From Gammaproteobacteria bacterium (GTDB lineage: Bacteria > Pseudomonadota > Gammaproteobacteria > Steroidobacterales > JABDMI01): DNA of 63,790 bases. Positions 2,865 to 63,407 of the stretch are shown in pieces. Made by a program: the position numbers and the translations under genes. Below the pieces are notes generated by a model. That model was given only the letters and a program-made list of their open reading frames with translations, made no database searches and was not told the origin of the DNA. The stretch lies in contig JABDMI010000127.1 of NCBI GenBank assembly GCA_013001575.1, positions 1 to 63,790 on the forward strand. The letters run 5' to 3'. The stretch's first letter is position 1. Every line of letters starts with the position of its first letter.

Positions 2865-3303
2865 AGATGTGTTCAGCGCGGTGTACAAAGGCGTCCATCA
2901 TATCCGAGATATCGTTTTGCAATGTGCGAGACAGTAAATTTGCGATGCCGTGCTTGAACTGAAAATCCATGTACAGACCCACCTTGCAACCGGCTTCCTG
3001 ACCTAGCGGGGCCTTGCCGAGTGGATCAAAACTCCACTGCCCGCGTAAGCGTTTGAATGGGCCATCGAGTAATTGCATTTGAATAGTCCAGGGTCTGTCA
3101 TTGGTATTGCTGGTAGTGAACGAATCTTTGATCAGGCCTTTTTGTATTCCCAAAGATGCGCTTAATTGACCGTTTTCACTCGAGTGCAACTCACCGGAAG
3201 CGCACCAGGGTAAAAATTCCGGATAGCTTTCAAAGTTATTGACCAAGTCAAACATTTCTGCACAGGTGTATGGCACCAGAGCATTGCGCTCAACAATCGG
3301 CAT
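2842..3303 (-). CDS. ratA: SRPBCC / ubiquinone-binding RatA (Coq10-like) family protein
   Basis: MPIVERNALVPYTCAEMFDLVNNFESYPEFLPWC resembles the RatA/YfjG N-terminus. Conserved ratA-rnfH pairing. ATG at 3303 preferred over TTG at 3312. Confidence 0.8.
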   Translation of the reverse strand: MPIVERNALVPYTCAEMFDLVNNFESYPEFLPWCASGELHSSENGQLSASLGIQKGLIKDSFTTSNTNDRPWTIQMQLLDGPFKRLRGQWSFDPLGKAPLGQEAGCKVGLYMDFQFKHGIANLLSRTLQNDISDMMDAFVHRAEHIYGPRSLD

Positions 3304-4871: not shown

Positions 4872-5348
4872 ATGCCAACCGATAAAAAAACCAAAAAAAG
4901 CAATAATCAAATTGCTGTCAATCGTAAAGCCGGACACGATTTTTTCATTGAACAGCGCTTTGAAGCGGGCCTTGCCCTGCAGGGCTGGGAAGTGAAAAGT
5001 TTACGCATGGGTAAGGCAAATCTGACCGACACCTATGTACGCATTATCAAAAACGAAGCGTGGTTACTGGGTTTACACATCACCCCGTTACTCTCGACCT
5101 CCACGCATGTACACGCCGACCCCACCCGGGTACGAAAATTATTACTGAATCGGCGTGAACTCGATATGTTGATCGGCGCGGTAGAACGCAAAGGTTATAC
5201 CCTGGTTGCGCTGAAAATGTACTGGAAGAATGGACGTGCCAAACTCGAAATCGGATTGGGTAAAGGCAAAAAGAGTTATGATAAACGCGCTGCTGAAAAG
5301 AACCGTGACTGGAATCGGCAAAAAGCACGTATTTTAAAAGGTCGCTAA
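4872..5348 (+). CDS. smpB: SsrA-binding protein SmpB
   Basis: 158 aa. [29 protein letters not shown] and a basic C-terminal tail are typical of SmpB. Confidence 0.95.
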
Positions 5349-5386: not shown

Positions 5387-6559
5387 ATGACAGATTTAAA
5401 ACCCAGCAAAGAACAGGTTCGCTTACAGATCAATGAACTTGACCAGCAATTACTCAAAGCATTGGCCAAACGCAAAGAACTGGTCGCCGATGTGATCGCC
5501 GACAAGATACGTGCCGGTCATCCCATTCGTGACACCGATCGTGAGCAGGCGCTGCTTTCGCGTCTGGTGGCAGATGGCATCGACCTGCAACTGAATCCGC
5601 AATTTGTATTAGACGTTTACCATCGTATTCTGGATGACTCGGTGCGGCAACAATATACCCACAGCTTGAATCGTGAAAACAAAGAGCAAATAAAAGAACT
5701 GCTCATTGCGCATTTGGGTGACCAGTATTCGTATAGCTATTTGGCAGTCGAGCGGCATTTCGCCAATTACCCGACAAAATTCGTGGGTCAGGGATTTGAT
5801 CATTTTCGAGAAATTTTTAACGCGGTGGCAAATCAGGAAGTTAATCTGGGATTGTTACCATTTGAAAATACCACTTCCGGCACCATTAACGAGATCCACG
5901 ATCTGCTGCGTGAATTTTCTTTATACATAGTGGGCGAGGAAAGTGTGGCCATACGCCATTGCCTGATCGGATTCCCGGGCAACAAGATCCATGAATTGAA
6001 AGATGTGTATTCACATCCTCAAGCCTTGGCACAATCCGGCGCGTTTTTACAAAAGTATCCCAATTTGCATGCCAATTTTTACGCCAGCACCTCAACCGCG
6101 GTAAATTACATAAAAGAGATAGGCGATCCAACAAAAGCCGCCATTGCCAGTCGCGAAGCGGCCATGCATGCTGGCCTAAGTGTGCTTGCCGAAGACATCG
6201 GCAATCAAGCCGAAAACTACACCCGCTTCATTATTATTGCCAGAAATCCGGTAAGCGTGCCCAATAATTTACCCGCAAAAACCACCTTATTGTTTGCTAC
6301 CCAGCATCAGGCCGGGGCTTTGGTGGACGTCTTGAATGTATTAAAAGAACACAAGATCAATATGACCAAATTAACCTCACGCCCTATTCCTGGCAAAGCC
6401 TGGCAAGAATTGTTTTTTGTGGATTTCCAGGGCAATCAGGCTGACGAGAATGTGCACGAAGCTTTGAACGAGGTGGAACAGCACGCGGCCTTTATGCGGG
6501 TTTTGGGCAGTTATCCCGAGCATTCCATTGATCCTACCCAGATTCAGTTGAAAGACTGA
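5387..6559 (+). CDS. pheA: Bifunctional chorismate mutase / prephenate dehydratase (P-protein)
   Basis: 390 aa. N-terminal chorismate mutase helix region, a central prephenate dehydratase region (ENTTSGTINE, YTRFIII) and a C-terminal ACT-like region. Confidence 0.9.
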   Translation: MTDLKPSKEQVRLQINELDQQLLKALAKRKELVADVIADKIRAGHPIRDTDREQALLSRLVADGIDLQLNPQFVLDVYHRILDDSVRQQYTHSLNRENKEQIKELLIAHLGDQYSYSYLAVERHFANYPTKFVGQGFDHFREIFNAVANQEVNLGLLPFENTTSGTINEIHDLLREFSLYIVGEESVAIRHCLIGFPGNKIHELKDVYSHPQALAQSGAFLQKYPNLHANFYASTSTAVNYIKEIGDPTKAAIASREAAMHAGLSVLAEDIGNQAENYTRFIIIARNPVSVPNNLPAKTTLLFATQHQAGALVDVLNVLKEHKINMTKLTSRPIPGKAWQELFFVDFQGNQADENVHEALNEVEQHAAFMRVLGSYPEHSIDPTQIQLKD

Positions 6560-7198: not shown

Positions 7199-7251
7199 CC
7201 ACCCTTGCGGTGGCTTTTTTATTTTTGCGGCGGGCGAGAAGCCGCGTTGCG
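7199..7251 (+). repeat. Direct repeat copy 2 (terminator module)
   Basis: ccacccttgcggtggcttttttatttttgcggcgggcgagaagccgcgttgcg. It keeps the same two hairpins as copy 1. Confidence 0.85.
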
Positions 7252-56806: not shown

Positions 56807-57376
56807 ATGCCCAGACGCTTTTTTCAACGTGTTCTACCCGACCCGAAAGAGATTCGCGATGCCTCGTATGTCAGTCCATTACGCGGTTTTATCGATAATC
56901 GACAGCTCTGGACCACCAAACGCCGCAATGTGGTGCTAGGTTTGGGGATTGGCATATTTTGCGGTTTTCAACCGATTCCTGCGCACACCATGCTGGCGGT
57001 ACTCTTAGCCATCTGGTGGAAAGCCAATCTGCCTATGTCGATTGTCGCGACCTTGTTCAACAACCCTATCACCATGTTTCCGATGTATTTCCTTGGGTAC
57101 AAAGTGGGCTGCGTGATACTGGGCGTACCGGACCTGGAGGTGCCACCCGACGCCAGCAAAATGGACTGGATCAAAAATTTGATCGCCAACAGTTGGCAAC
57201 CGATCTATTTGGGATGTTTTGTAACCGGGTTGGTGTTGGCGCTAATCGGCAGTTTAGGTCTCAACCAGTTTTGGAAATGGGCGGTTTTAAAACGCCGCCG
57301 CAATCGTTTACTGCGAACCGATGAATCCAAAAGACTGGAACAGGATAATGTGGAGTATAAGAAAAAGATCAAGTGA
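56807..57376 (+). CDS. DUF2062 membrane protein
   Basis: The RRFFQRVLPDPKEIR N-terminus and GIGIFCGFQPIP...NPITMFPMYF pattern match my recollection of DUF2062. Confidence 0.65.
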   Translation: MPRRFFQRVLPDPKEIRDASYVSPLRGFIDNRQLWTTKRRNVVLGLGIGIFCGFQPIPAHTMLAVLLAIWWKANLPMSIVATLFNNPITMFPMYFLGYKVGCVILGVPDLEVPPDASKMDWIKNLIANSWQPIYLGCFVTGLVLALIGSLGLNQFWKWAVLKRRRNRLLRTDESKRLEQDNVEYKKKIK

Positions 57377-57473
57377 CATTAACGCCGCAAGTATGGGCTT
57401 GCAAAAGTGGCAGGTAATTGCACATGCAATTTAAGTGGCGCATCTAACAGTCCAATGCCCTGCCTTGTTATGT
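57377..57473 (-). repeat. attC site (distal, after cupin cassette)
   Basis: The plus strand starts cattaacgcc and ends ccttgttatgt, matching the ends of the other attC sites. R'' ACATAAC follows the cupin stop. The site begins 1 nt after the DUF2062 stop codon. Confidence 0.6.
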
Positions 57474-57478
57474 TCAAA

Positions 57479-57928
57479 CTATTTAGATTCTGAACTTTTA
57501 ATTGGCATTGCATCAAGTGGCTCTACAAAACCGATATACAAAACACAGGGGTCGCCTTTGTGGCAATATGCGGAATGTGGCAGTTTGGCTGGGCCGTATG
57601 CATACTCTCCAGTTTTTATAGTTGCCTTTTCATGGTCGTCATATTGGACATCAAGGGTGCCAGAAACCAGCACCATACGCTCTTGAGATGTGTGTAAATG
57701 ATGTGGTATTACAAAATCACCAGGAACTTTAAAATAGATATCCAGGTTGTTTTTGGAGGGGTCACCCTGCAAAACTGCAATTTCACAACCTGTAGGTATG
57801 AAGTCAGGGCATGGAGCCCATTGAAGTGTTTTATCCATATGGGAGATAACCAAGGGCTTTTCTCCTGCATTTACATGCCCGTACATGAATATTAAAACTA
57901 GCGTTAAAATTAATTGAGTGTTTTTCAT
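57479..57928 (-). CDS. Secreted cupin-domain protein (integron cassette ORF)
   Basis: 149 aa. Signal peptide (LILTLVLIFMYGHVNA), then a cupin-like PHHLHTSQERMVLVSGTL region. Followed by an attC. Confidence 0.7.
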   Translation of the reverse strand: MKNTQLILTLVLIFMYGHVNAGEKPLVISHMDKTLQWAPCPDFIPTGCEIAVLQGDPSKNNLDIYFKVPGDFVIPHHLHTSQERMVLVSGTLDVQYDDHEKATIKTGEYAYGPAKLPHSAYCHKGDPCVLYIGFVEPLDAMPIKSSESK

Positions 57929-57958
57929 TTTTTAATACCTTTTTTGGTTAATAAATCA

Positions 57959-58092
57959 AAACAATACGAAACAATACGAGCGAAACAATACGAGCGAAAC
58001 AATACGAGACACACACCATTTATCCTACACGAAAGTCAGATAACGAAACAATACGAGACACACACCATTTATCCTACACGAAAGTCAGATAA
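57959..58092 (+). repeat. Tandem repeat block: AAACAATACG(AG) core x5, including a perfect 49-nt duplication
   Basis: 57995-58043 and 58044-58092 are identical (cgaaacaatacgagacacacaccatttatcctacacgaaagtcagataa). They are preceded by 10- and 14-nt partial units at 57959, 57969 and 57983. Confidence 0.95.
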
Positions 58093-58151
58093 GGATTACA
58101 AATTTTCTCGGTAGAATAAGTTCTTATATTTAATTTGCAAAAGGATTTGCA

Positions 58152-59129
58152 ATGGCTATTGCCCGTCGTCAGCTTATCGATGCTGAAACCACCCCTTATT
58201 ATCATGTAATGTCTCGTTGTGTCCGTCGTGCGTTCTTGTGTGGAATAGACAAGTTAACAGGGCGTGACTTTTCACATCGACGGCAATGGGTCGAAGATAA
58301 ACTCAATGAATTAATTCCAATATTTGCCATCGATCTCGCGGCCTATGCGATTATGAGCAATCATTATCATCTGGTGCTTCGAGTTGATAGTGATTTAGCT
58401 AGATCCTGGAGTATGGATGAAGTTTTTGAACAATACAGTAATTTGCATGCATGCTCGACGGTTGTGGAGCGGTATCTAAACGGGGCTGTACTTACAACTG
58501 CTGAACTATTTCTAGTACAGGAATACGAAAATGAATATCGGGAACGCTTGAGTTCCATCAGCTGGTTCATGAAAGTGTTGAATCAGCATATTGCGGTTAA
58601 GGCGAACAGAGAAGACAACTGCACAGGTAAATTCTGGGAATCACGCTTTAAATCCCAAGCTTTACTGGATGAGGCTGCTCTGCTTACTTGCATGGCATAT
58701 GTGGACTTGAACCCGATAAGAGCGGGTATGGCTGACCGACCTGAACAGTCGGACTTCACCTCGATTCAAACCCGACTGGATCGTAATAAACGCGTTCCAG
58801 CCAACTCAATGAAACTATTACTCGGCTTTATTAAACTCAAGGCCGAATATGGCGACAAACACATTCCACTGGCTGAATCGGCTTACATCGAATTGGTCGA
58901 TTGGACAGGACGATGTCTAAGAGATGGTAATAAAGGTTCTATCCCGCCTCATTTGGCCCCCATTCTCGAACGCATCAATCTCACCGAACAGGATTGGTTA
59001 CGACATACTCGCTACTTTGAAGCCAGGTTCAAACGCGTGGCAGGCAGTTGGGATTCCATCAAACAAACCGCTGCCAAATTAAAACGTAATTGGTTTCAAG
59101 GCAAACCGCCCAAACCGATACCTAATTAG
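58152..59129 (+). CDS. Y1 HUH transposase-family protein (IS200/RAYT-like, long form)
   Basis: 325 aa. TPYYHVMSRCVRRAFLCG, the HUH motif in AIMSNHYHLVLRV and the Tyr helix MAYVDLNPIRAGMA are typical of IS200-like/REP-associated tyrosine transposases. AAAGGA SD. Confidence 0.75.
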   Translation: MAIARRQLIDAETTPYYHVMSRCVRRAFLCGIDKLTGRDFSHRRQWVEDKLNELIPIFAIDLAAYAIMSNHYHLVLRVDSDLARSWSMDEVFEQYSNLHACSTVVERYLNGAVLTTAELFLVQEYENEYRERLSSISWFMKVLNQHIAVKANREDNCTGKFWESRFKSQALLDEAALLTCMAYVDLNPIRAGMADRPEQSDFTSIQTRLDRNKRVPANSMKLLLGFIKLKAEYGDKHIPLAESAYIELVDWTGRCLRDGNKGSIPPHLAPILERINLTEQDWLRHTRYFEARFKRVAGSWDSIKQTAAKLKRNWFQGKPPKPIPN

Positions 59130-59269
59130 AAAACTCCAACTAAATTAATGGAATTGGGTGCTGCCCAAGGATTGTTATGTCTTCGATTTGGGAAACTCTG
59201 AATTTTTAAGCCAAAAATCAGAAATTGTCGAATTTCGAACTATAAATCCCTCAAAATCTCATGTCTGTG

Positions 59270-59304
59270 CAAATCAAAAGCCTCAAGTTGATGCTTTTGA
59301 TTTG
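59270..59304. repeat. Perfect 12-bp inverted repeat (hairpin, 11-nt loop)
   Basis: caaatcaaaagc-ctcaagttgat-gcttttgatttg. There is no U-run on either strand, so it is not a typical terminator. Confidence 0.9.
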
Positions 59305-59320
59305 ACATATCTGTGTGTGT

Positions 59321-59419
59321 CTAAATTTGCTTTATTGATGGGTCATCAGGTTTCCATTCTTCAATTGGGTCATGAGCAATACAGTCCCATGACTTAATTT
59401 CAGGTCTTAATGTTTCCAT
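59321..59419 (-). pseudogene. Truncated paralog of cassette ORF 60760-61110
   Basis: METLRPEIKSWDCIAHDPIEEWKPDDPSIKQI* aligns with MKTLKPIIKEWDCITHDPIENWEPEDRSMVEF of the intact cassette. Similarity ends at about 59321. It is preceded by the same R' box, GTTATAC. Confidence 0.65.
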
Positions 59420-59422
59420 AGC

Positions 59423-59479
59423 GTATAACGTTTGAGAACAGCGGCGCCGTAGGCGTCCGACTGCTTTGACTTGTTAAGT
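59423..59479 (-). repeat. attC site (57 nt)
   Basis: Plus strand gtataac...cagcggcgcc-gta-ggcgTccgActg...gttaagt. The stem has two extrahelical bases on the 3' arm of the plus strand. Confidence 0.8.
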
Positions 59480-59482
59480 GCA

Positions 59483-59761
59483 TTATAAACATGCACCATG
59501 TACATAACAAACATAGACAATAGAAGCATAAAAAAATAATGGTAAATTAGCAATAAAAAGCCCTATTGAAAAATAGACACTGAACTTTGACTTATTAGAT
59601 ATAAAGTAATATGACAGTGAGCCTAGAGCAGATGAAATTACTAAAAATACTGTGTCAGAAATACCTGACCAGCTCAACGAATAATAACGAGTTATTGAAA
59701 TATATGCTGCTAGTACAACCCCCGAAATTAATAAATTTGAAAACAATCCTTTGATATTCAT
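59483..59761 (-). CDS. Cassette ORF: small membrane protein (about 3 TM)
   Basis: 92 aa from ATG 59761. The track start, GTG 59773, lies inside the R' box. Hydrophobic, with no recognised family. Confidence 0.5.
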   Translation of the reverse strand: MNIKGLFSNLLISGVVLAAYISITRYYSLSWSGISDTVFLVISSALGSLSYYFISNKSKFSVYFSIGLFIANLPLFFYASIVYVCYVHGACL

Positions 59762-59771
59762 ATTAAATGAC

Positions 59772-59861
59772 ACTTAACGCCTTGGTAAGCCGCAGCCAGA
59801 GCGAAGCGGCGGGGACAAAACGCATAAGCGTTTTGCTGTCGGCTTGACCAACTTGTTACGT
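59772..59861 (-). repeat. attC site (90 nt)
   Basis: Plus strand acttaac...gttacgt. R'' ACGTAAC is the complement of the R' GTTACGT that starts its cassette at 60301-60307. Confidence 0.75.
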
Positions 59862-59863
59862 GT

Positions 59864-60286
59864 TTAGTCATGGAAGTGCTCCAAACTTGCAGCCTTGATA
59901 TATGGAGTAAGGGCTTCCACTGCGCCGCTATTTTTGTGCCAGATAATATATGTGTAATCCCATTCTTCACTTATAACACACCCCAAATCTGGAACTACTA
60001 ACTTCAGGAATTCCGAGGCGTTTTTATTCATGCTTACTTCATAGTTTGAAAGTACAGATTCTATATCGCCAACGCTTGTAAGCGACTGCTGATCACAGCT
60101 CGCTATCTCAATAGCGAAGTCTTTAGCTAGGCTTCTTAGTAGCGTATTGAACCGACCCCATTCAACTTCCGTGACTTCGTCCAACTTGTGATAATTCTTT
60201 TTACCAAGCCATCCCTTCCATAAGGACACAAACTCTTTGGAATATTCCGGCTTAACTTCCCAACCTTCAAAGTATTCGCTAAACAT
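59864..60286 (-). CDS. Cassette ORF: hypothetical cytoplasmic protein (140 aa)
   Basis: Clean ATG ORF filling the cassette. Trp-rich, with no recognised motif. Confidence 0.6.
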   Translation of the reverse strand: MFSEYFEGWEVKPEYSKEFVSLWKGWLGKKNYHKLDEVTEVEWGRFNTLLRSLAKDFAIEIASCDQQSLTSVGDIESVLSNYEVSMNKNASEFLKLVVPDLGCVISEEWDYTYIIWHKNSGAVEALTPYIKAASLEHFHD

Positions 60287-60300
60287 GATTTCTCGGTGAC

Positions 60301-60380
60301 ACGTAACGTTTTAGGTAATGGGCGTATGCGCAGCACACGTCCAGCCAGCTTGCTGGCGATTATTAACCGACTTGTTATGT
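60301..60380 (-). repeat. attC site (80 nt)
   Basis: Plus strand acgtaacgttttaggtaat...cttgttatgt. The stop codon of the upstream cassette ORF lies inside R''. Confidence 0.75.
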
Positions 60381-60662
60381 TGCACTTTGCCAATTTTTGG
60401 TAATACCTTCATACTCCCACTCTGCTTGTTCTTTTGCTTCTTCAACTGACTCATGTGCTGAGTCTGATAACTTATTATCTGAGTAGCACATAAATAAATA
60501 ACAATAACCTTGTAAGTCGGTTTTAGTAATAGCAGCCCATTTTGCCTTACCCATTACTTTGCCATCAATTTCATGCGTGCAGTTACTGGTATGAATACAC
60601 GACTCATCAATAATTGCACTCAACATAATTTCAAGAGAGCCTATTTTTTCAGGTATCTGCAT
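60375..60662 (-). CDS. Cassette ORF: hypothetical protein (95 aa)
   Basis: ATG ORF filling the cassette. C-terminal EQAEWEYEG motif. Confidence 0.55.
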   Translation of the reverse strand: MQIPEKIGSLEIMLSAIIDESCIHTSNCTHEIDGKVMGKAKWAAITKTDLQGYCYLFMCYSDNKLSDSAHESVEEAKEQAEWEYEGITKNWQSAT

Positions 60663-60677
60663 AAAATTTCTTTTGCG

Positions 60678-60756
60678 ACATAATGTTTTAGTTAACAGGC
60701 GCTACGTATGTAGCGTCCAGAGAGTGAAACGAACGCTGTTAAACGGTTTGTTATAC
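60678..60756 (-). repeat. attC site (79 nt) with mutated crossover triplet
   Basis: Plus strand acataaTgttttagttaac...tttgttatac. It aligns base-for-base with the left end of the 60301 attC, but AAC is AAT here (R' reads ATTATGT, not GTTATGT). Confidence 0.65.
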
Positions 60757-60759
60757 GCT

Positions 60760-61110
60760 CTATGGTTTGTAATTTTCATACTCCCACTGAAACATTTTTG
60801 ATAACTCCAAACTTATGCCTTGCCAATTAATACCAGAAATATCATTTACCTTAGTATTTAAAATATTTAAGACCTGGCTCCAACTTTCATAATAAGGGAT
60901 AACTAATATATAGTCTTTGTGTGCAAGTTGAGAAAGCATTTTTTCAGTTGTTACATGAACATTAAAATTATCGGCTCCCTTTTGGCCTTCAATGCCAATT
61001 GAAATGTTACACCAAAATTCAACCATAGAACGATCTTCAGGCTCCCAGTTTTCTATTGGGTCATGAGTTATACAATCCCATTCTTTTATTATTGGTTTAA
61101 GTGTTTTCAT
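60760..61110 (-). CDS. Cassette ORF: hypothetical cytoplasmic protein (116 aa), possibly immunity-protein-like
   Basis: ATG ORF ending in MFQWEYENYKP. A paralogous fragment lies at 59321-59419. The family assignment cannot be verified here. Confidence 0.6.
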   Translation of the reverse strand: MKTLKPIIKEWDCITHDPIENWEPEDRSMVEFWCNISIGIEGQKGADNFNVHVTTEKMLSQLAHKDYILVIPYYESWSQVLNILNTKVNDISGINWQGISLELSKMFQWEYENYKP

Positions 61111-61116
61111 GTTTGC

Positions 61117-61176
61117 GTATAACGCCTAGCTAAACGGCGCGGTGTAACCGCGTCCGATTTAAGCGTATTGTTAGGT
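61117..61176 (-). repeat. attC site (60 nt)
   Basis: Plus strand gtataac gcctagctaaacggcgcgg-tgta-accgcgTccgAtttaagcgta ttgttaggt. Confidence 0.8.
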
Positions 61177-61180
61177 GTGC

Positions 61181-61486
61181 TTATGGTGCCCATTTATTTA
61201 ATTTTACTTCTAAAGGCGATAATAAAGACCACAATAATAAACCACACATAGCTACGCCAAAAAATATAATCACTTTAACTGTAATATTAAGTGAAACGAG
61301 GGTTTGTAAATAGATAGATAGTAATCCTATTGCTACTGCAGATAAACACAAAAACACTGCGTTGATAACCCAATGAAACCCTACCATAGATTTACAATTC
61401 TGGCACTTAGGCCTACTCAACATTAAACCAATAATTGAGATTGATTTTTTATTGCAATTGGGGCAATTTCGCTTCAATGAGTACAC
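61181..61486 (-). CDS. Cassette ORF: small membrane protein with N-terminal zinc-ribbon (CPNC...CQNC) and 2 TM
   Basis: 101 aa. The GTG start overlaps R' (GTTAGGTGTAC). The paired CxxC motifs argue for the long form. Confidence 0.55.
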   Translation of the reverse strand: MYSLKRNCPNCNKKSISIIGLMLSRPKCQNCKSMVGFHWVINAVFLCLSAVAIGLLSIYLQTLVSLNITVKVIIFFGVAMCGLLLWSLLSPLEVKLNKWAP

Positions 61487-61544
61487 CTAACGTTTGAACT
61501 AAGCGGCGCCGCTTGCGGCGTCCGACTTAAGTGACTTGTTAGAG
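61485..61544 (-). repeat. attC site (60 nt)
   Basis: Plus strand acctaac gtttgaactaagcggcgcc-gcttgc-ggcgTccgActtaagtgac ttgttagag. Confidence 0.8.
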
Positions 61545-61565
61545 GAACGTAACTTCATAACAAGA

Positions 61566-62069
61566 TTAAATCTCAATTGATCGTAGTAGCTCTAACCATT
61601 TGTATTTATTTTCCATCACCTCAGTAAAATCGATTTCTTTGGCAAAGGGTAATTTATGAGAATAAAATATTGAATACACATCATTACCGTCAGAATAGAA
61701 TCTATTTATTACATACTCATAGCGAGACTTATCTGGTGCTAATAAGGTCAGCAATAAATACACATCTTCTGGGTATGAGGTGTCTTCATTTTGCAAAATT
61801 TCAGGAGCAAGTGCAAACATTGGCTTTACACTATTAACATAGTTTGGCAAAACCTCTTTTAGCTTGGTTTTGTTACTGTATTTGCGTACAGTAATCATAT
61901 TTTTCCAAGCCTCTAAGCTTTGTCCATTAGGCAAATATTCTGATGTTTTTACATCATTTTTATCAGACTCCCAAACTTGACAGAACTCACTTTCACCAAA
62001 CGATATACAGTCAGATGCAAATGCAGTATTAGCAAATATAACAAATAGAATAGCTATATATATTCTCAT
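61566..62069 (-). CDS. Cassette ORF (first cassette): secreted hypothetical protein
   Basis: 167 aa from ATG 62069 with GAGGAA SD. Signal peptide MRIYIAILFVIFANTAFA. No recognised family. Confidence 0.6.
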   Translation of the reverse strand: MRIYIAILFVIFANTAFASDCISFGESEFCQVWESDKNDVKTSEYLPNGQSLEAWKNMITVRKYSNKTKLKEVLPNYVNSVKPMFALAPEILQNEDTSYPEDVYLLLTLLAPDKSRYEYVINRFYSDGNDVYSIFYSHKLPFAKEIDFTEVMENKYKWLELLRSIEI

Positions 62070-62077
62070 TCTAGTTC

Positions 62078-62411
62078 CTCTAACAGTTTTATTCAGCGAC
62101 ACAGTGTCGCATAATTCTATGTCGGTATTTATCCATTAATGTTTGGTTAAATACCACGATTTATTCAAGTTAAACAATAACATAGATTACAACATCTTCG
62201 TTAAAAAAACTCCTACAAAAGCGACACATGAAATCTGAGTTGTGTGTCGGTTTTATCTTACGGATTCTTAAAGAATATCTAAATTATTCCATTAAAACAG
62301 TAACTTACATCATGATGTGAGCCTTTGTTAATGCGACAGTCTGTTTTGTCGGTTTTCAAAGTCTGATAATATTCAATTACAAATTTATTTAACAGTTAAA
62401 AGGATTTAACT
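62078..62411 (-). other. attI region (approximate) with cassette junction GTTAGAG
   Basis: Minus strand reads aaaactGTTAGAGGaactagaATG. The box is the exact complement of R'' CCTCTAAC of the first cassette's attC. The region lies between the array and the intI start. Confidence 0.6.
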
Positions 62412-63407
62412 ATGAAAGACATGGACAATGTCAGGCATGTTTTGCCAAAAACACCTTCTAAATTTATGCACCGTTTGCGTGCGTTCATCAGGGCAAAAAA
62501 TCTCGCCTATAAAACTGAGCAAACTTACTGCTTTTGGATCAAGCGCTATATCTTTTTTCACCATAGGCAGAACCCACAAGAACTGACACCACAACATGTG
62601 GAACAGTTTTTGCATTCTTTGGCTGTGGTTGATAACGTGAGTGTGGGCACACAAAAGATCGCATTAAATGCTTTGGCATTTTTATACAACCAGTTTCTAA
62701 AGCAGCCGCTGGGTCAAATTCATATAACCAAAGCAAAAGTGCACAAAAGAATTCCTACGGTATTCTCACACAAGGAAGCCATTGCCATAATTCAGGCTTT
62801 AACAGACCCTTGGAAACTATTGGCGAACTTGATGTATGGCTCTGGACTACGTACCAGTGAAGCCATCAAACTCCGCGTAAAAGATCTGGATTTTGATAAC
62901 CAGATCATTTTGATTCGCTCGGGAAAAGGCGATAAAGATCGACGCAGTATATTACCCGATTCACTCTACCCTGAGCTCAAACAACAGATCAATCTGGTTA
63001 TTAAAGTGCATCATAAAGACCTGCACGACGGATATGGGTCAGTTTATATGCCAAAAGCATTAAACCGAAAATACAAAAACGGTGCAAAAGAACTGGCATG
63101 GCAATATTTGTTTCCTTCAGAGAGCCTATCGCGTGACCCTCGCAGTGGAATTATTAGAAGACACCATGTCCATGAACGCTCTCTCCAACGTAACGTTAAA
63201 AAAGCCATTCAGGCGGCTCATGTCACAAAGCACGCCAGTTGCCACACTTTTCGTCACAGCTTTGCTACAAGACTATTGGAACAAGGGAACGACATCAGAA
63301 CCGTGCAGGAATTACTCGGGCATGCGGATGTTAAGACTACTGAAATTTACACTCATGTTTTGCATAAGGGGGTATTAGGAGTAAAGAGTCCGGTGGATAG
63401 CCTGTAA
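62412..63407 (+). CDS. intI: Integron integrase IntI
   Basis: 331 aa tyrosine recombinase. Motifs YKTEQTYCFWIKRYIFFH, GSGLRTSEAIKLRVKDLD and the IntI-specific insertion ALNRKYKNGAKELAWQYLFPS. The catalytic HTFRHSFATRLLE...LLGHADVKTTEIYTHV is also present. Confidence 0.9.
   Translation: MKDMDNVRHVLPKTPSKFMHRLRAFIRAKNLAYKTEQTYCFWIKRYIFFHHRQNPQELTPQHVEQFLHSLAVVDNVSVGTQKIALNALAFLYNQFLKQPLGQIHITKAKVHKRIPTVFSHKEAIAIIQALTDPWKLLANLMYGSGLRTSEAIKLRVKDLDFDNQIILIRSGKGDKDRRSILPDSLYPELKQQINLVIKVHHKDLHDGYGSVYMPKALNRKYKNGAKELAWQYLFPSESLSRDPRSGIIRRHHVHERSLQRNVKKAIQAAHVTKHASCHTFRHSFATRLLEQGNDIRTVQELLGHADVKTTEIYTHVLHKGVLGVKSPVDSL

Follow-up and report, generated by a model that had tools for sequence, protein, structure and literature searches.

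The 1290 bp segment at positions 58044–59333 of the 63.8 kb stretch of DNA analysed here (the window) is best explained, with a probability of about 0.7, as an IS-like element of the 'TIRtron' kind. It lies at the junction between the integron cassette array next to rlmB and another chromosomal block, and the Imm8 cassette fragment that abuts it marks a junction anchored on the element, not an attC-specific insertion. The genome has at least one other, diverged copy of the element, the coding polarity of which is opposite to that of the cassettes. The original prediction was of a segment of opposite polarity, approximately 1.4 kb long, at 57929–59320. A discrete element of this polarity is present, with different limits: the element proper is 58044–59333, and 57957–58043 consists of stubs of its left end.

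A small chromosomal integron occupies the right end of the window. Its cassettes are on the minus strand, divergent from intI, and extend leftward from approximately 62100, separated by seven attC sites that show the bulged hairpins typical of such sites together with R″ (xxxTAAC) and R′ (GTTAxxx) boxes. In order from intI, the cassettes encode proteins of 178 aa, 101 aa, 116 aa (Imm8), 95 aa, 140 aa and 96 aa. Beyond the 96 aa cassette are the Imm8 fragment, the Y1 segment, a cupin cassette (149 aa), a DUF2062 gene and comEC. The features of the region are:

57379–57473, minus strand: attC-like site of the cupin cassette, 97 nt (R″ ACATAAC and R′ GTTAATG; from boxes and fold)
57479–57928, minus strand: cupin cassette ORF, 149 aa (Pfam Cupin_2, 3.9e-10)
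57929–57956, minus strand: 5′ leader of the cupin cassette, 28 nt (from reading of the sequence and comparison with six other cassette starts)
57957–58043, plus strand: four reiterated left-end stubs (TRF and a repeat finder; register follows the left end at 58044)
58044–58065, plus strand: left terminal inverted repeat, CGAAACAATACGAGACACACAC, with the core AGACACACAC at 58056–58065
58152–59129, plus strand: tnpA, intact, 325 aa, assigned to TnpA-Y1 subclass 2.3 (motifs NHYH, WE, YVDLNP and TS)
59270–59304, plus strand: stem-loop of 17 bp with one mismatch (16/17 bp paired, perfect 12 bp stem), then a T-rich run
59312–59333, plus strand: right terminal inverted repeat, with the core GTGTGTGTCT at 59313–59322 and a conserved outer 11 nt
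59334–59427, minus strand: 5′ fragment of an Imm8 cassette (ATG at 59419, 28 homologous codons)
59423–59479, minus strand: attC of the 96 aa cassette (covariance model, 45.7 bits, E = 8.7e-8)
62412–63407, plus strand: integron integrase gene intI, adjoining rlmB (TIGR02249, 3.1e-125, 418 bits against a cut-off of 265)

A covariance model for attC, built from the local sites, recovered three of them strongly and three partially, and no match in the remainder of the 63.8 kb was below E = 0.1. Because the sensitivity of the model to attC with long loops is poor, the array counts obtained with it are lower bounds. Going from the Y1 element towards the integrase gene, the first attC that is intact is the one at 59423–59479. 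The attC-like site of the cupin cassette gave only a weak, partial match (16 bits). It is atypical in that its predicted fold consists of two separate hairpins, and it directly abuts the DUF2062 stop codon. Rfam returned no match in 57300–62500, and promoter and terminator scans performed no better than on shuffled sequence. Two paralogous Imm8 (polymorphic-toxin immunity) cassettes are present in the array, one intact at 60760–61110 and the other, at 59334–59419, cut to 28 codons.

The gene carried by the element encodes the long-form Y1/HUH protein, similar to those of the RAYT and IS200 groups, that had been anticipated from the HYH and YVDLNPIRAG motifs in its 325 aa product. These are found in the contexts SNHYHLVL at residues 69–76 and YVDLNPIRAG at residues 183–192. 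In an alignment of 32 sequences, N70-H71-Y72-H73, W138, W162-E163 and Y183-VDLNP are invariant, and T203-S204 and the C-terminal half, including the last 120 aa, are conserved. Scores against Pfam Y1_Tnp (21.2, gathering threshold 23) and NCBIfam REP_Tyr_transpos (46 bits, cut-off 80) fell below the thresholds. When an AlphaFold2 model (pLDDT 82) was used to query Foldseek, the best match was the Escherichia coli RAYT 4ER8_A (E = 5.7e-4, probability 1.0, target TM score 0.61), followed by the ISDra2, IS608 and IS200 transposases in 2XO6, 2EC2, 2VJU and 2F4F. A sequence-profile search of the PDB returned only a coiled-coil match, which was judged spurious. The protein has more than 8000 homologues, and the named hosts are marine gamma-proteobacteria, including Kangiella, Hahella, Endozoicomonas and Thiodiazotropha.

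TnpA-Y1 subclass 2.3 has been defined by a median length of 325 aa, the motifs NHYH, WE and YVDLNP, insertions of 10 and 55 aa in the core, the latter between β3 and αC, and a TS-containing proximal tail followed by a specific distal C-terminal domain (Quentin 2018, PMC6006769). The product of ORF 58152–59129 has this length and all of the signature motifs, on which its assignment to subclass 2.3 is based. In the predicted structure, helices at residues 80–154 are inserted after the strand at 71–78, which fits the insertion criterion. The likeness to subclass 2.3 extends from length, motifs, core insertions, TS tail and C-terminal domain to the marine and gamma-proteobacterial hosts and the several diverged copies per genome: the subclass averages 3.9 copies per genome at a mean identity of 75%, with no associated REP, and flanking DNA structures were not reported for it (PMC6006769). 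The searchable literature yielded no report on the ends, target or activity of subclass 2.3. The genes examined here differ from that description in being flanked by short inverted repeats with the core [AG]GACA[CGT]NCA, which are often reiterated.

In the window, the element is bounded by 22 bp imperfect terminal inverted repeats that are identical at 15/22 positions and include a 10 bp core, AGACACACAC, that is identical at 10/10. The exact core occurs just three times in the whole 63.8 kb, at 58007 and 58056 on the plus strand and at 59313–59322 on the minus strand. To the left of the element, the predicted block of tandem repeats was found to be exact, with a 14 nt unit present three times at 57967–58008 and a 49 nt unit present twice at 57995–58092, both 100% identical. 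The block is made up of four reiterated stubs of the element's left end, each of which restarts at the left terminus: 57957–57966 (10 nt, one mismatch), 57967–57980 and 57981–57994 (14 nt each) and 57995–58043 (49 nt). One other assembly has one 14 nt unit fewer. The perfect 12 bp stem that had been noted in the tail belongs to the hairpin at 59270–59304, for which the predicted DNA fold has an energy of −13.3 kcal/mol (z = −6.1 against shuffles) and which is retained in the three closest copies (the window copy and two others). Across 60 relatives, the predicted folding of the 60 nt on the inner side of the right core is no stronger than that of shuffled sequences (mean z approximately −0.7), and there is no conserved hairpin near either the left or the right end (mean z = −0.55 and −0.72, respectively). 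The hairpin at 59270–59304 is therefore probably the terminator of tnpA and not a conserved recognition structure.

The metagenome-assembled genome GCA_013043715.1 carries both the locus in the window (99.8% identical) and a second copy of the element, the product of which shares 79% amino acid identity with that of the window copy. The second copy is downstream of rnt, in an unrelated, non-integron locus with no attC nearby, and its nucleotide homology with the window copy (76%) extends in a BLAST alignment from 58051 to 59336. In a third copy (82% amino acid identity), the right end is conserved to 11 nt beyond the core. As 59323–59333 are conserved in two related copies, they belong to the right end of the element. 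Recent transposition was not visible, the copies within a genome being diverged (79% amino acid identity here). Look-ups of identical proteins for two homologues, P0078 and P0048, gave one locus each, which was the same locus across samples, and neither these nor the other comparisons revealed an empty site or a target duplication. A plasmid search returned 13 records, mostly chromids, and was uninformative on mobility.

To examine the wider family, 80 genomic and 80 metagenomic loci were retrieved, and the pattern [AG]GACA[CGT]NCA was scored in the 71 genomic loci with full flanks. A forward core was found upstream of the gene in 61/71 loci, with five in the wrong orientation, and a reverse core downstream in 54/71, with four in the wrong orientation. 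Both ends were correct in 47 loci and both wrong in none. More than one left core was present in 26/71 loci and more than one right core in 23/71, and the 9 nt just outside the core recur further out at 23/61 left ends and 18/54 right ends. As reiterated ends occur in about a third of loci, the tandem block in the window is a family trait and not a local curiosity. Extra partial copies of the gene, nested or in tandem, were found in 10/84 loci and are mostly N-terminal pieces directly upstream and in the same orientation. In two loci, L054 (3600–5611) and L074 (3165–5093), copies of the element are joined inside other copies, after approximately residue 98 and residue 206, respectively. The downstream copy in L074 lacks a right end, its tail being fused to approximately the final 12 nt of an attC. 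In L025 the left end and eight codons are duplicated, and in L070, L025, L040, L054 and L074 flanking ORFs are truncated or end right at the element terminus.

L025, from Marinomonas sp. MED121, also includes a piece of approximately 95 nt (3189–3285) with a forward and a reverse core and no gene between them, located inside a cassette, that resembles a miniaturised form of the element. A shared stretch of 47 nt comes after both this piece and the right end of the full element. We considered whether the 47 nt might represent a split attC and rejected this, as they have no attC fold and repeat the outer unit of the element.

Among known systems, a similar architecture is that of the TIRYT/TIRtron, in which a RAYT-like Y1 gene lies between terminal inverted repeats that in many cases share the motif GGGGWSAS (Di Nocera et al. 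2013, PMC3733652). Quentin et al. equated TIRtrons with the sister subclass 2.1 (PMC6006769). TIRtrons and the element in the window both have terminal inverted repeats in place of REP hairpins, and the TIRtron motif overlaps the core described here, GACAC fitting WSAS. The match to the full motif is partial, at 6/8 positions in the window (CGAGACAC) and 7/8 in L011. The elements described here differ in that the protein belongs to subclass 2.3, while those of TIRtrons belong mostly to 2.1, in that no HTH or DnaA-C-like tail was detected in the Y1 protein, and in their reiterated ends and nested copies, which have not been described for TIRtrons. With the E. coli RAYT, TnpA-REP (4ER8), the element shares the closest solved fold and the Y---NP tyrosine motif, and, as in REPtrons, inverted copies of what is presumably the enzyme's substrate lie on both sides of the gene. 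However, REP hairpins and a GTAG tag are absent, the protein is twice as long, and the element is multi-copy while REPtrons are usually single. The IS200/IS605 elements (IS608, ISDra2) have the same HUH/Y1 catalytic core and presumably the same single-strand DNA chemistry. They differ in having no inverted repeats and instead subterminal hairpins at both ends on one strand, and in a Y---Q motif in a dimeric enzyme of approximately 150 aa, compared with Y---NP in 325 aa here. The IS1111-attC group and the group IIC-attC introns are likewise mobile elements found inside cassette arrays, but they insert at a fixed position in attC and in a fixed orientation, and the Y1 elements do neither.

At the junction with the array, the right terminus of the element meets the Imm8 fragment at 59333/59334 and supplies its stop codon. 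Comparison of the fragment with the intact 116 aa Imm8 ORF (60760–61110), which covers positions 3–114 of the 114 in Pfam Imm8, revealed 72% nucleotide identity over 86 bp, after which they diverge. The predicted truncation of a cassette is thus borne out, with 28 codons matching the paralog, although the clear end of homology is at 59334 and not at 59321. On the other side, the left stubs meet the 28 nt leader of the cupin cassette, where, on direct reading of the sequence and comparison with six other cassette starts, no R′ box is recognisable 5′ of the ORF. The covariance model found no attC between 57474 and 59423. The loss of the truncated cassette's attC and of the R′ box of the cupin cassette was therefore correctly foreseen, and a truncated cassette at the element's end together with a missing attC is consistent with the proposal of an insertion plus deletion, or a recombination. 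The possibility that the element is itself a gene cassette, with an ORF and its own attC, was rejected on the absence of attC in this interval and because the element is also found outside integrons.

The cupin gene also adjoins the Y1 gene in three other assemblies. The junction of the cassette fragment with the right end was seen only in the window's contig, and other assemblies of the species break at or before it. In a relative, the contig that includes the Y1 gene, the cupin gene, DUF2062 and comEC (L085) is 99.4% identical to the window and stops at window position 59332, at the right terminus. Another contig from the same relative (L173) is 100% identical to window positions 61346–60304, after which a different cassette begins, precisely at the R′ crossover of the attC of the 95 aa cassette. 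At this point (window 60300–60310, L173 1035–1045), the window continues with the 140 aa cassette and the relative with a 92 aa cassette. This difference is a clean case of integrase-level cassette polymorphism. Exact look-ups found no record for the 140 aa and 92 aa cassette proteins, nor for the Y1 protein or IntI. This 92 aa cassette is the last in L173 and is followed by rpsF-rpsR-rplI-dnaB. As rlmB adjoining rpsF is the usual gene order in gamma-proteobacteria and the array in L173 ends at rpsF, the native far boundary of the array is probably rpsF. As the same array ends at rpsF in the relative, the element sits at a rearrangement or deletion junction, and in the window the right terminus of the element is where the array meets the comEC block. 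The description of the element as embedded in the array needs qualification: the Y1-cupin-comEC block is on a separate contig in the 99.4% identical relative, where the array ends at rpsF instead.

The Imm8 junction may have arisen by an adjacent deletion of approximately 350 bp following insertion in situ, or by an inversion or translocation anchored on the right terminus. The cupin cassette is in the orientation of the array, which fits insertion in situ plus deletion as well as it fits rearrangement. An assembly chimera, in which the array truly ends at rpsF and the Y1-cupin-comEC block lies elsewhere, would account for the restriction of the junction to the window, for the breaks in the relative's contigs at 59332 and inside the gene, and for the end of its array at rpsF. 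However, the array and the right end have no sequence in common by which an assembler could be misled, the cassette fragment differs from the intact Imm8 cassette as a diverged paralog (72%) and is not a copy of it, and the fragment reads in frame into the element's terminus. We therefore consider a chimera very unlikely, and less likely than inversion or translocation or insertion plus deletion. It is also improbable, though not to the same degree, that the gene is RAYT-like but has been domesticated by the host and is not mobile, and that the oddities around it reflect unrelated decay of the array. In favour of this, nearly all relatives have an intact ORF, the copies have diverged from one another, identical proteins occupy fixed loci across samples, and RAYT groups are generally inherited vertically (Bertels 2017). 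Against this, the 79% identical second copy in the same genome is at an unrelated locus, correctly oriented inverted-repeat ends are conserved across the family, copies are nested within other copies and neighbouring genes are truncated, and many metagenome contigs of 1.2–1.9 kb carry only the Y1 gene. The original prediction had named a single-copy housekeeping RAYT gene with no sign of mobility as the finding that would count against it, and these observations describe something different. Subclass 2.3 genes have in addition been found in several copies per genome and interpreted as showing 'recent and active spreading' (Quentin 2018, PMC6006769).

The speculation that attC hairpins serve the enzyme as single-stranded substrates to target or exploit, with arrays as a preferred habitat, is not supported, and we consider it quite unlikely. 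A confident attC (E < 0.1) was found within 4 kb of the element in 8/162 relatives including the window (approximately 5%, a lower bound), comprising 7/82 genome loci (with the window, L070, L040, L074, L025, L054 and L042) and 1/80 metagenome loci (L098). As the expectation for random placement, a rough estimate from array sizes, is approximately 1% or lower, association with attC is probably above random, again as a lower bound and in a comparison with chance and not with other mobile elements, for any of which arrays would be permissive landing sites. In every array case inspected, where an attC would be expected next to the element there is none, or only a remnant of approximately 12 nt (residual ends AGGGCGTTAGGT in L054 and GCGTTAAGT in L074), and the element terminus is often 5–14 nt from the stop codon of a cassette ORF. 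However, approximately 95% of relatives, including the second copy in the same genome, have no attC nearby. Among the six arrays inspected, the element is in the same orientation as the cassettes in L070, L025 and L074 and in the opposite orientation in the window, L054 and L040. None of the inspected cases has an attC split into two halves by the element or a junction position in common with the others, the right end in the window is inside coding sequence, and the tail hairpin is not conserved in the family. The pattern fits end-anchored rearrangements in permissive DNA better than recognition of attC hairpins.

Two attC sites in the Simiduia locus L040 (6905–6935 and 7310–7330) contain GGCTGTCC, which is the reverse of the element core. 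Elsewhere, attC stems carry CGGAC(A). Being short, the match may be due to chance. The CGGAC motif was considered as a mimic of the core and rejected, the match being too short to distinguish from chance.

To our knowledge, no biochemistry exists for subclass 2.3, and any catalytic mechanism is drawn entirely by analogy with the TnpA proteins of IS608 and ISDra2 and with E. coli TnpA-REP. By this analogy, H71 and H73 would hold the metal, and the enzyme would nick single-stranded DNA at or beside the core via a 5′-phosphotyrosine on Y183. As the cores are inverted, they could either pair within one strand, so that the ends come together, or each be recognised and cut on opposite strands. Joining of the freed end to poorly specific partner sites could then generate reiterated ends, nested copies and truncated neighbours. 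A broader proposal is that subclass 2.3 elements move in a mode undescribed for HUH transposons, with a precise cut at the terminus and loosely chosen partners, that gives rise to reiterated ends, self-nesting and attC-erasing junctions and is a recurrent driver of array rearrangement in marine gamma-proteobacteria. We regard this as doubtful. If it were true, cassettes within integrons would be fused or stranded and arrays broken apart by such elements.

The protein class had already been catalogued, although it has been little studied, and the modest new content here is a description of ends for subclass 2.3. The locus in the window and approximately 160 relatives provide concrete ends, a conserved inverted core that is often reiterated, which lend themselves directly to assays of cleavage and transposition. 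With respect to integrons, the locus exemplifies array breakage and loss of attC at the site of an element that is not an integrase element, and it provides no evidence for a new parasite specific to attC.

The closest homologues (P0002–P0041) are mostly on metagenome contigs of 1.1–1.9 kb that hold little beyond the Y1 gene, and many longer contigs also end within a few hundred bases of it. Assemblies seem to break at the ends of the element. The second copy in GCA_013043715.1 (on contig L002) is flanked by three solitary right-end-like motifs, TTTTTTCGTGTGTGTCTrrCTTTTC, at 4966–4990, 5458–5482 and 7205–7230, with no attC present. Two of these are just past the stop codons of small minus-strand ORFs for membrane proteins, and the third precedes a duplicated tnpA 3′ end.
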